Part shown: one piece after another, positions 38,370-38,712 of the stretch
How the letters are laid out: every line of letters begins with the position of its first letter
Position numbering within the stretch: position 1 is the stretch's first letter
NCBI GenBank assembly: GCA_026991395.1
Contig: JALXBP010000073.1
Location: forward strand, 1 to 57,794
From: Anaerolineae bacterium
GTDB lineage: Bacteria; Chloroflexota; Anaerolineae; B4-G1; SLSP01
DNA length: 57,794 nucleotides
Direction: 5' to 3'
Notes under the pieces: model-generated
Told to the model about the DNA's origin: nothing
Databases searched by the model: none
The model's input: the letters and a program-made list of their open reading frames with translations, nothing else
Made by a program: the position numbers and the translations under genes

Positions 38370-38409
38370 GACAGCAGGCCGATGGAGGCTTTCCATCGGC
38401 CTGTTTGTC
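38370..38409 (+). terminator. Terminator after ferredoxin
   Basis: CAGGCCGATGGA..TCCATCGGCCTG followed by TTTGT. Confidence 0.8.
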
Positions 38410-38474
38410 GTTAGGATAACGTCAGGAAAACGTCAGCTTGACGTCAAGCGAAGGAGCGGAAGCCGCGGTATCAT
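38409..38474 (+). promoter_or_regulatory. Direct-repeat operator and -10 box (unit 1)
   Basis: CGTTAGG 38409, CGTCAGG 38420, CGTCAGC 38431, CGTCAAG 38442 (11-bp period); TATCAT 38469. Confidence 0.75.
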
Positions 38475-38479
38475 AGATG

Positions 38480-38562
38480 CGTGGGCACATGGAACGAGAG
38501 ACCAGCAGCGCAACAGTATCCTCCTTTGCACGACCGAGGGCCTGAAAAGGCTCTCGGTTCTG
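38480..38562 (+). ncRNA. Putative sRNA 1 with anti-SD motif
   Basis: Follows the -10; TATCCTCCTTT (38517-27); hairpin ACCGAGGGCCT-GAAA-AGGCTCTCGGT (38533-58); ends approximate. Confidence 0.55.
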
Positions 38563-38576
38563 CATAGGTCTTGAAT

Positions 38577-38630
38577 CGTCAGGAAATCGTCAGATTGGCG
38601 TCAAGTATTCGATGAGCGACGGCGTATAAT
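38577..38630 (+). promoter_or_regulatory. Direct-repeat operator and -10 box (unit 2)
   Basis: CGTCAGG 38577, CGTCAGA 38588, CGTCAAG 38599 (11-bp period); TATAAT 38625. Confidence 0.78.
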
Positions 38631-38635
38631 AGAGA

Positions 38636-38712
38636 GCGTACAGGCCGCACTTGAGAATTCTCCTCCTTCTGTAGAGCCGAGGGCGTTGGGGACCGCCCTC
38701 GGCCTCTTTTTT
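38636..38712 (+). ncRNA. Putative sRNA 2 with anti-SD motif and intrinsic terminator
   Basis: TTCTCCTCCTTCT (38658-70); GCCGAGGGCG..CGCCCTCGGC stem followed by CTCTTTTTT; ends approximate. Confidence 0.62.

Follow-up and report, generated by a model that had tools for sequence, protein, structure and literature searches.

Putative sibling small RNA genes with a CU-rich core and a direct-repeat operator in the class Anaerolineae

Introduction

What kind of element occupies the 438-nucleotide (nt) gap between a ferredoxin gene (Fer4, 38094-38360) and an ArsR/HTH_5-type regulator gene (38799-39422; both assigned with Pfam) in the genome of an Anaerolineae bacterium (GCA_026991395.1)? The gap lies in contig JALXBP010000073.1, of which we analyzed a stretch of 57,794 nt, hereafter called the window. 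A preliminary description of this DNA, made from the letters alone, proposed that the gap holds a tandem pair of small RNA (sRNA) genes whose transcripts are complementary to the Shine-Dalgarno sequence and which stand under a shared direct-repeat operator. Our comparison with other genomes suggests that the two units are members of a multi-copy family of sibling sRNA genes conserved across the class Anaerolineae, and we consider it very likely that they are real sRNA genes controlled by a regulator.

Layout of the two units

Both units lie within 38409-38712 on the plus strand and follow the same plan, i.e., CGTYAG direct repeats, a -10 box, a variable 5' part, the core TCCTCCTT and a GC-rich hairpin. 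The operator of unit 1 (38409-38448) consists of four direct repeats with an 11-bp period: CGTTAGG at 38409, CGTCAGG at 38420, CGTCAGC at 38431 and CGTCAAG at 38442, with the upstream CGTTAGG being an extra, fourth one. The -10 box TATCAT (38469-38474) follows 20 nt past the last repeat, or 27 nt past its start, without a -35 hexamer. The predicted sRNA copy 1 (38481-38566, putative ends) represents a divergent subtype with a weak U-tract; its core reads UAUCCUCCUUUG, including TCCTCCTT at 38519-38526, the hairpin spans 38533-38558, and its predicted fold has a z of -3.46.

Unit 2 has an operator of three repeats (38577-38605), namely CGTCAGG at 38577, CGTCAGA at 38588 and CGTCAAG at 38599, and a -10 box TATAAT (38625-38630) that is located 19 nt past the last repeat and 26 nt past its start. 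The predicted sRNA copy 2 (38637-38712) is of the canonical type and would be ~75 nt long, with a putative 5' end ~7 nt past the -10 box. Its core AAUUCUCCUCCUUCUG (as DNA AATTCTCCTCCTTCTG) occupies 38656-38671, including TCCTCCTT at 38661-38668; the 5' hairpin is short and lacks a G-run. A terminator-like hairpin of 10 pairs, 9 of them G-C, spans 38676-38703, followed by a T6 run (U6 in the RNA) at 38707-38712.

The pair is bounded upstream by a hairpin following the ferredoxin gene (38375-38403, plus strand), with perfect 12-bp arms followed by GTTTGTCGTT and a terminator-like site at 38386-38402, and downstream by a separate sigma-70-type promoter, TTGACA-16-TATAAT (38742-38769, plus strand, 12/12 consensus positions), which is the own promoter of the ArsR/HTH_5-type gene and lies outside the element. 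All these aspects of the layout agree with the preliminary description: each element of the two units was found at the position it had given, repeat comparison returned the 26 of 29 identical positions (90%) and the offset of 157 nt that it had reported for the 29-nt operators, the -10 boxes start 27 nt (TATCAT) and 26 nt (TATAAT) past the start of the last repeat as it had said, and the 12-bp hairpin and the 12/12 promoter mark the limits it had drawn around the pair.

Conservation across the class Anaerolineae

A BLAST comparison of the gap with 40 relatives returned recurrent matches to the core with its hairpin and to the repeat array in many genomes, often two or three in tandem on one contig, ~150-240 nt apart. 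The relatives' loci with a BLAST match hold the full unit, composed of the repeats, the -10 box, a variable 5' part, GATTCTCCTCCTTCTG and a CCGGGGG...CCCCCGG hairpin. From such units we constructed two covariance models, R1 from 31 units and R2 from 83 realigned matches, other orders included. A plain MAFFT alignment (A1), on which RNAalifold predicted four pairs, placed the hairpin in two registers; the stem was therefore set by hand for R1, followed by realignment with the model (A2).

In the genome under study, R1 identified copy 2 (38626-38717; 53.3 bits, E 9e-12), copy 1 (38484-38572; 29.9 bits, E 2.7e-5) and one further weak match (E 0.14); R2 scored the two copies at 55.2 and 29.7 bits, respectively. 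Of the 71 genomes of the family, 67 contain R1 matches, with 1-5 copies each. The preliminary description had regarded the absence of conservation in relatives as evidence against its proposal, and at the level of the order R1 matched 131 of 145 genomes. Furthermore, R2 matched 99 genomes in an even sample of 151 from the class and, in a phylum-wide sample, 11 of 15 genomes of the same class; weak R2 matches occurred in 8 of ~135 genomes of other classes, and the two of these eight that were inspected both lacked the repeat array. An exact-pattern scan for two repeats and the core over the genomes of 185,579 species yielded at least 120 contigs. Among the matches listed, 79 of 80 contigs carried titles naming Anaerolineae, Anaerolineales, Anaerolineaceae, genera of Anaerolineae or Chloroflexi/Chloroflexota/'Chloroflexia', and the remaining one, an Aeromicrobium contig, was taken as a chance match.

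We compared the loci with the families of Rfam 15. Besides one tRNA elsewhere, the window gave no match at the gathering score of a family; within 38300-38850, the best matches at E up to 10 were unrelated (E 0.44-9.5), and the loci of 12 relatives gave no match at E up to 0.1. A full-text literature search found no such sRNA in Anaerolineae or Chloroflexi, and a term search of a 50-genome survey of non-coding RNAs (PMC11109978) gave no mention of Chloroflexi. Neither Rfam 15 nor the literature search yielded any described trans-acting sRNA for Anaerolineae. The novelty that the preliminary description had proposed for these siblings is thus consistent with the Rfam comparison, in the window as well as at the loci of the 12 relatives, and the notion of an undescribed family gains from the class-wide, multi-copy conservation combined with the lack of an Rfam 15 or literature match.

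Operator and promoter

The operator is rare in sequence terms. The pattern CGTCA-N6-CGTCA-N6-CGTCA with at most two mismatches has three matches in the window, all of them in the gap, and none of 100 shuffles reached three; with at most one mismatch, the matches of the whole 2,457,921-base genome fall solely in this gap, and the reversed control gave none. A 33-nt weight matrix, made from the operators of relatives only, scored unit 2 at 53.3 bits and unit 1 at 35.9 bits (at 38418), while the next independent site in the genome reached 9.2 bits. The layout is more than chance.

In close relatives, a TAnnnT box starts 19-21 nt past CGTCAAG in 31 of 31 units. The spacing was examined in a larger set of 124 distinct units, taken from the contigs that the pattern of repeats and core had listed and with no selection for a -10 box. 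Among the matches listed, the -10 box lies exactly 20 nt past the last repeat in 113 of the 124 units and 19-21 nt past it in 119, a TG stands two bases 5' of the box in 84, and a third upstream repeat is present in 107. The operator consensus is aaatCGTaAGgaAAgCGTcAGatTnnCGTCAAG, followed by a non-conserved spacer of 20 nt. No -35 consensus was observed in the spacer of relatives, and a sigma-70 scan of the window detected no -35/-10 pair at the promoters of the units. Head-to-tail repeats with an 11-bp period beside a promoter that lacks a -35 hexamer are the arrangement expected of an activator-controlled promoter; given the repeats, the fixed distance to the -10 box and the absence of a -35 hexamer, we consider the anatomy that of an activator-dependent promoter, in which the repeats would sit at ~-33 to -67 from the presumed start site.

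The half-site varies by lineage, being CGT(A/C)AG in the family of the window and CGTAGGG in sister families and other orders, with CGTYGGG seen in a single family; the last repeat is constant across lineages (CGTCAAG or CGTCCAG). The last two repeats of unit 1 form a perfect 12-bp palindrome, CTTGACGTCAAG (38437-38448 of the window), which is probably incidental because unit 2 and the relatives do not have it.

RNA features

Across 78 distinct RNAs, TCCTCC is present in all 78, CTCCTCCTT in 75 and TTCTCCTCCTT in 73. The 16S rRNA of this genome ends with GGAUCACCUCCUUUCU. Since CCUCCUU is common to the core and the 16S 3' end, the core is complementary to the Shine-Dalgarno sequence, AAGGAGGAG or AAGGAGG(AG); the flanks beyond CCUCCUU differ between the core and the 16S tail.

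The terminator stem is paired in 98.8% of the alignment cells and both sides changed at 8 of 8 pairs, figures that are favored because alignment A2 was fitted to the structure of the model; none of 500 shuffles reached the observed values, and slid controls were 44-66% paired. The preliminary description had suggested a covariance model and a search for covariation across Chloroflexota, and both came out in its favor, with R1 and R2 matching widely in the class Anaerolineae and the stem changing at all eight pairs. At least four T within 9 nt past the stem were counted in 64 of 77 RNAs. From these signals, each unit appears to be equipped with a promoter and an intrinsic terminator that do not depend on the genes on either side, as is expected of an sRNA gene. 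In the upstream copies of tandem arrays the U-tracts are often weak, so that read-through into the next copy would be possible. Subtypes resembling copy 1, with AUUCCUCCUUG and CUUCCUCCUUG, are present in relatives, and in at least one relative this subtype, which has a shortened core, is the second copy of a tandem pair.

A hairpin with a G-run in its loop is the predicted 5' minimum-energy fold in 33 of 52 distinct family-type RNAs (e.g., AAUCGGGG and AGUCGGGG). The 5' stems vary in sequence yet remain complementary, as in GUGGG/CCCAC, UACGG/CCGUA and UGUGGU/ACCGCA. Conserved G-runs are found in the loops of both hairpins, with (A/G)(A/G)UCGGGG in the 5' loop and UGGGAC, kept in many members, in the terminator loop. 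Some predicted folds pair the loop G-runs with the CU-rich core, and the G-runs may serve as an inbuilt mask or as a further site of interaction.

Association of the operator with the RNA

A scan of the 145 genomes of the order with the three-repeat pattern returned 149 matches, compared with 10 in the reversed control (counted by hand). The motif CTCCTCCTT lies 40-80 nt past the operator in 132 of the 149. The 17 exceptions include unit 1 of the window, with the core ATCCTCCTT, three variant sRNAs with the cores CTCCTCCTG, TCTTCCTCCTT and ATTCCTCCTT, two arrays truncated where the contig stops, three sites before a gene for a membrane protein of the endonuclease/exonuclease/phosphatase family and one site before a LuxR-type response-regulator gene; about seven are GC-rich and were judged to be chance matches from the matched sequence alone. 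Five high-quality genomes, representing four families, have no match above control level other than at sRNA promoters; one of these promoters belongs to an additional variant, in a complete genome of 2.6 Mb. Taken together, the 132 of 149 matches and the result for the five genomes indicate that the strong sites of the regulator are almost all at sRNA genes, besides a few mRNA promoters in some lineages.

Several protein genes carry the same arrangement. The three-repeat operator and a -10 box precede the gene for a membrane-anchored PF03372 protein in three sister-family genomes, with the operator at position 1501 of each locus (minus strand in one of them), and in two genomes of one genus, not in the third genome, the gene next after it encodes a BTAD+AAA (SARP-like) protein. 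One genome has the operator and a -10 box ~90 nt before a LuxR/GerE-type gene (Response_reg and GerE domains; operator at 1501 and open reading frame (ORF) at 1628-2290 of the locus); it is possible that this response-regulator gene is a member of the regulon, as a single case. The occurrence of the operator before protein genes in a few genomes implies that the regulator can also drive mRNAs.

Proposed mode of action

The two units are best read as genes for sibling sRNAs that depend on an activator and pair with Shine-Dalgarno sequences, and we hold this reading to be probable; as to the action of the RNAs taken by itself, we lean towards anti-Shine-Dalgarno pairing. A winged-helix activator would bind the repeats and, upon a signal, turn on all copies. 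The transcript of ~75-95 nt would comprise a variable 5' hairpin, the near-invariant CU-rich stretch UUCUCCUCCUU and the GC-rich intrinsic terminator; it would pair with the Shine-Dalgarno regions of mRNAs, hinder the binding of the 30S subunit and so block translation initiation, and several gene copies would provide a higher dose. The proposed action matches what has been reported for the CiaR-dependent sRNAs (csRNAs; PMC3091779) and for LhrC (PMC4132741).

In the genome under study, the top candidate among the ribosome-binding sites (RBSs) is that of an alpha-glucan phosphorylase gene, which would form 15 pairs with copy 2, one of them G-U. Target scans by run length and by duplex energy gave noisy output in this genome, due to G-U pairs in a genome of 66% G+C and to many false starts within genes. 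In one relative (G002), the alpha-glucan phosphorylase orthologue (17953-20088) and a three-copy array (8295-8742) are ~9 kb apart, which may be coincidence.

A number of observations weigh against pairing with specific mRNAs or against parts of the evidence for an activator-controlled family. The complement of the 13-mer of the core has 12 matches off the sRNA genes in the 71 genomes of the family, compared with 15 in the reversed control, and the extended complementarity to the alpha-glucan phosphorylase gene is not kept in five orthologues. The mean unpaired probability is 0.55 for CCUCCU, no higher than the 0.53 of the 5' part of the RNA, i.e., accessibility is middling, and in several members the 5' G-runs are able to pair with the core. 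The 16-mer GAUUCUCCUCCUUCUG is invariant within the family (38 of 78 RNAs in the mixed set), which exceeds the need of generic Shine-Dalgarno pairing. The copies in the window are among the more divergent members, with 53 and 30 bits compared with 60-84 bits in relatives; moreover, related genomes are non-independent, the E-values of the covariance models are rough, and alignment A2 was fitted to the structure of the model. On the side of the regulator, no two-component gene is among the 15 commonest neighbor clusters at 120 loci, and a relaxed three-repeat scan of this genome detected no weaker operator at the promoters of the candidate regulators.

Alternative explanations

Two explanations would deny that the units are sRNA genes at all. 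On the minus strand, AAGGAGGAG is perfect as a Shine-Dalgarno sequence, and GGAGG is followed in the window by a GTG at 11 nt (unit 2) or a TTG at 6 nt (unit 1), so that one could imagine real RBSs of small ORFs, with the hairpins as their upstream terminators. The preliminary description had itself identified small ORFs behind a minus-strand AAGGAGG as evidence that would speak against it, and the comparison gave them no support: a start codon of any kind 4-12 nt past GGAGG was found in only 39 of 78 members, 33 of these being TTG, the resulting peptides show no relation to one another and several are only 1-4 codons long, and the presumed coding stretch varies in length and sequence. The -10 box at its set distance and the T-run following the hairpin (64 of 77) indicate the plus strand, and the small-ORF explanation is hardly credible. 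Alternatively, the repeats might regulate the ferredoxin or the ArsR-like gene in cis, with the CU-rich stretch and hairpins as leader or terminator sequence. The element does lie between two genes and directly 5' of a regulator gene, and the operator precedes a protein gene in three genomes of another family and a LuxR-type gene in one genome. Nevertheless, the downstream gene has its own 12/12 promoter past the terminator, homologues of the ferredoxin and ArsR-like genes are found at 0 of 207 loci, the neighbors vary, the units form tandem arrays of two or three, each with its own promoter and hairpin, and the core stands at a fixed range past 132 of 149 operators, all of which makes cis-regulation very improbable. 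A mobile or repetitive extragenic palindrome (REP)-like repeat was ruled out as well, on account of the 1-5 copies per genome, the promoter anatomy that is always present and the lack of terminal inverted repeats.

Other explanations accept a real, regulated RNA and differ in what it does. No targets were identified and accessibility is middling, which leaves room for a decoy or sponge and for a global competitor. As a decoy, the RNA would mimic the 16S 3' tail or serve as a CU-rich ligand and would not pair with specific mRNAs; it might titrate a protein (e.g., ribosomal protein S1, an RNA binder of the cold-shock or KH type, or a nuclease that targets the 16S tail) or sit on the ribosome. 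The core is stricter than Shine-Dalgarno pairing needs (TTCTCCTCCTT in 73 of 78) and shares CCUCCUU with the 16S 3' end, the search for a conserved mRNA target with long complementarity came up empty, the loop G-runs UCGGGG and UGGGAC are unexplained by a simple seed model, and multiple gene copies fit stoichiometric titration. On the other hand, no conserved neighbor gene hints at a protein partner and no candidate partner was found, the flanks outside CCUCCUU are unlike the 16S tail, and the multi-copy CU-rich sRNAs under two-component control that are described in PMC4132741 (LhrC) and PMC3091779 (csRNAs) pair with RBSs; we therefore regard the decoy as unlikely. The same low standing applies to a one-regulator relay, in which a flood of RNA mimicking the anti-Shine-Dalgarno tail would compete with ribosomes genome-wide. 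If true, such a relay would throttle or re-rank translation initiation globally, and the G-rich loops might mask and gate the CU-rich core. Because the flanks beyond CCUCCUU differ, mimicry of the 16S tail was kept solely within the reading of the RNA as a global competitor.

Candidate regulators

If the units are activator-dependent sRNA genes that pair with Shine-Dalgarno sequences, as we prefer to read them, the form of the operator would suit a response regulator of the OmpR/PhoB type or a SARP-type protein as the activator. The genome under study has 13 matches to Trans_reg_C. Eight of them are in proteins of response-regulator size, comprising six with REC and winged-helix domains, one with FHA and winged-helix domains and one with a degenerate receiver; the other five matches are weaker, four being in proteins of ~1200-1300 aa. 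None of these candidates adjoins the sRNA genes in any genome examined, and the relaxed three-repeat scan of this genome revealed nothing convincing besides the two units. When the eight proteins were compared by eye with the recognition helix of CiaR, as given in PMC3091779, no obvious likeness was seen. The BTAD+AAA gene is no more than a lead as a candidate for the regulator.

Comparison with known systems

Sites of SARP- and OmpR/PhoB-type activators consist of 11-bp direct repeats that overlap or replace the -35 element, and in the pho box, the CiaR box and the SARP heptamers the nearest repeat ends 8-12 nt from the -10 box. The Anaerolineae operator resembles these sites in its head-to-tail 11-bp repeats, its fixed phase relative to the -10 box and the absence of a -35 hexamer; it differs in that 20 nt separate the last repeat from the -10 box, which moves the repeats upstream by one helical turn. 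Sibling sRNAs under response regulators are likewise familiar. In E. coli, the adjacent OmrA and OmrB are driven by the response regulator OmpR and use their 5' end as the seed; in Firmicutes, RsaE/RoxS are under response-regulator control and pair through C-rich motifs (CCCC loops) with Shine-Dalgarno regions. Both differ from the RNAs described here, with no sequence or structure match in Rfam, other seeds and other phyla.

The csRNAs of Streptococcus depend on CiaR, are encoded by 2-6 genes per genome and are 51-202 nt long (Marx et al. 2010, PMC3091779). As described there, they share with the Anaerolineae units the multi-copy siblings and the hexamer repeats of 11-bp period that replace the -35 element at a fixed distance to the -10 box. 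The csRNA plan of a stem-loop, an unpaired Shine-Dalgarno complement and a terminator has a possible counterpart in the Anaerolineae, where the complement is present in 78 of 78 RNAs, a 5' hairpin is predicted in 33 of 52 and the mean unpaired probability of the core is 0.55. Common to both is the half-site TAAG, which occurs as TTTAAG in csRNA promoters and as CGTAAG/CGTCAAG here. The CiaR box, in the form (N)TTAAG-N5-TTTAAG located 10 nt before the -10 box (PMC3091779), does not describe the Anaerolineae operator, which has CGTMAG/CGTAGGG repeats and 20 nt to the -10 box. Thus two TTTAAG copies there contrast with three to four CGTMAG/CGTAGGG copies here, and a -10 distance of 10 nt with one of 20 nt. 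According to that paper, csRNAs also carry a complement to AUG, whereas the consensus here has no conserved CAU 5' of the core.

LhrC1-5 of Listeria monocytogenes are multi-copy, LisRK-dependent sRNAs whose CU-rich sites bind an mRNA and impede its translation (Sievers et al. 2014, PMC4132741). The likeness lies in the multi-copy, CU-rich character of the sRNA. In contrast, LhrC has three redundant CU-rich sites where the Anaerolineae RNAs have one long invariant stretch, the sequences are unrelated, and the inducing signal of LhrC is cell-envelope stress. The csRNAs, too, come from another phylum, and the units described here have no Rfam match. The element would belong to a known kind, i.e., response-regulator-controlled sibling CU-rich sRNAs; the member, its operator and the class-wide spread in Anaerolineae are new.

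Anaerobic digesters, sediments and activated sludge harbor Anaerolineae in abundance, and these bacteria are hard to grow. A class-wide sRNA family with a regulatory handle, in the form of a highly specific operator that marks nearly every copy, makes several questions testable: which regulator and which signal act on it, given ~13 candidate proteins per genome; whether two-component-like control of anti-Shine-Dalgarno sRNAs has arisen independently in a third phylum, besides the examples in Firmicutes; and whether the reach of an RNA that carries the CCUCCUU of the ribosome is confined to a few mRNAs or extends to translation as a whole. Annotation of the many Anaerolineae metagenome-assembled genomes can make direct use of the covariance model and the operator pattern.

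Neighboring genes

Based on the ferredoxin gene and a gene it called SufR-like beside the pair, the preliminary description had suggested a link to Fe-S or redox control. This idea did not survive the comparison: among 207 loci from other genomes, nearly all centered on this RNA or its repeat array, there is no homologue of either the ferredoxin or the ArsR-like protein, and the neighbors differ. Since the neighbor genes of other genomes differ, the neighborhood in the window is incidental. Among the matches listed, a divergent O6-methylguanine-DNA methyltransferase gene (PF01035 and PF02870) adjoins the sRNA in 51 of 120 loci, in a head-to-head arrangement with a median distance of 89 nt, and a prephenate-dehydrogenase-like gene is next on the same strand in 30 of the 120.

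The ArsR/HTH_5-type regulator (38799-39422, plus strand) has 207 aa, with cysteines in its C-terminal half in the contexts HCPY..., DTCY... and HCTY. Directly downstream of its gene lies a ParB-family gene (39429-40409, minus strand; ParB_N, HTH_ParB and ParB_C), which may place the window close to a locus for chromosome partition; a ParB homologue is present at 1 of the 207 loci in other genomes. Elsewhere in the window, a tRNA gene (3733-3806, minus strand) is the sole Rfam match at the gathering score, with 69.6 bits.

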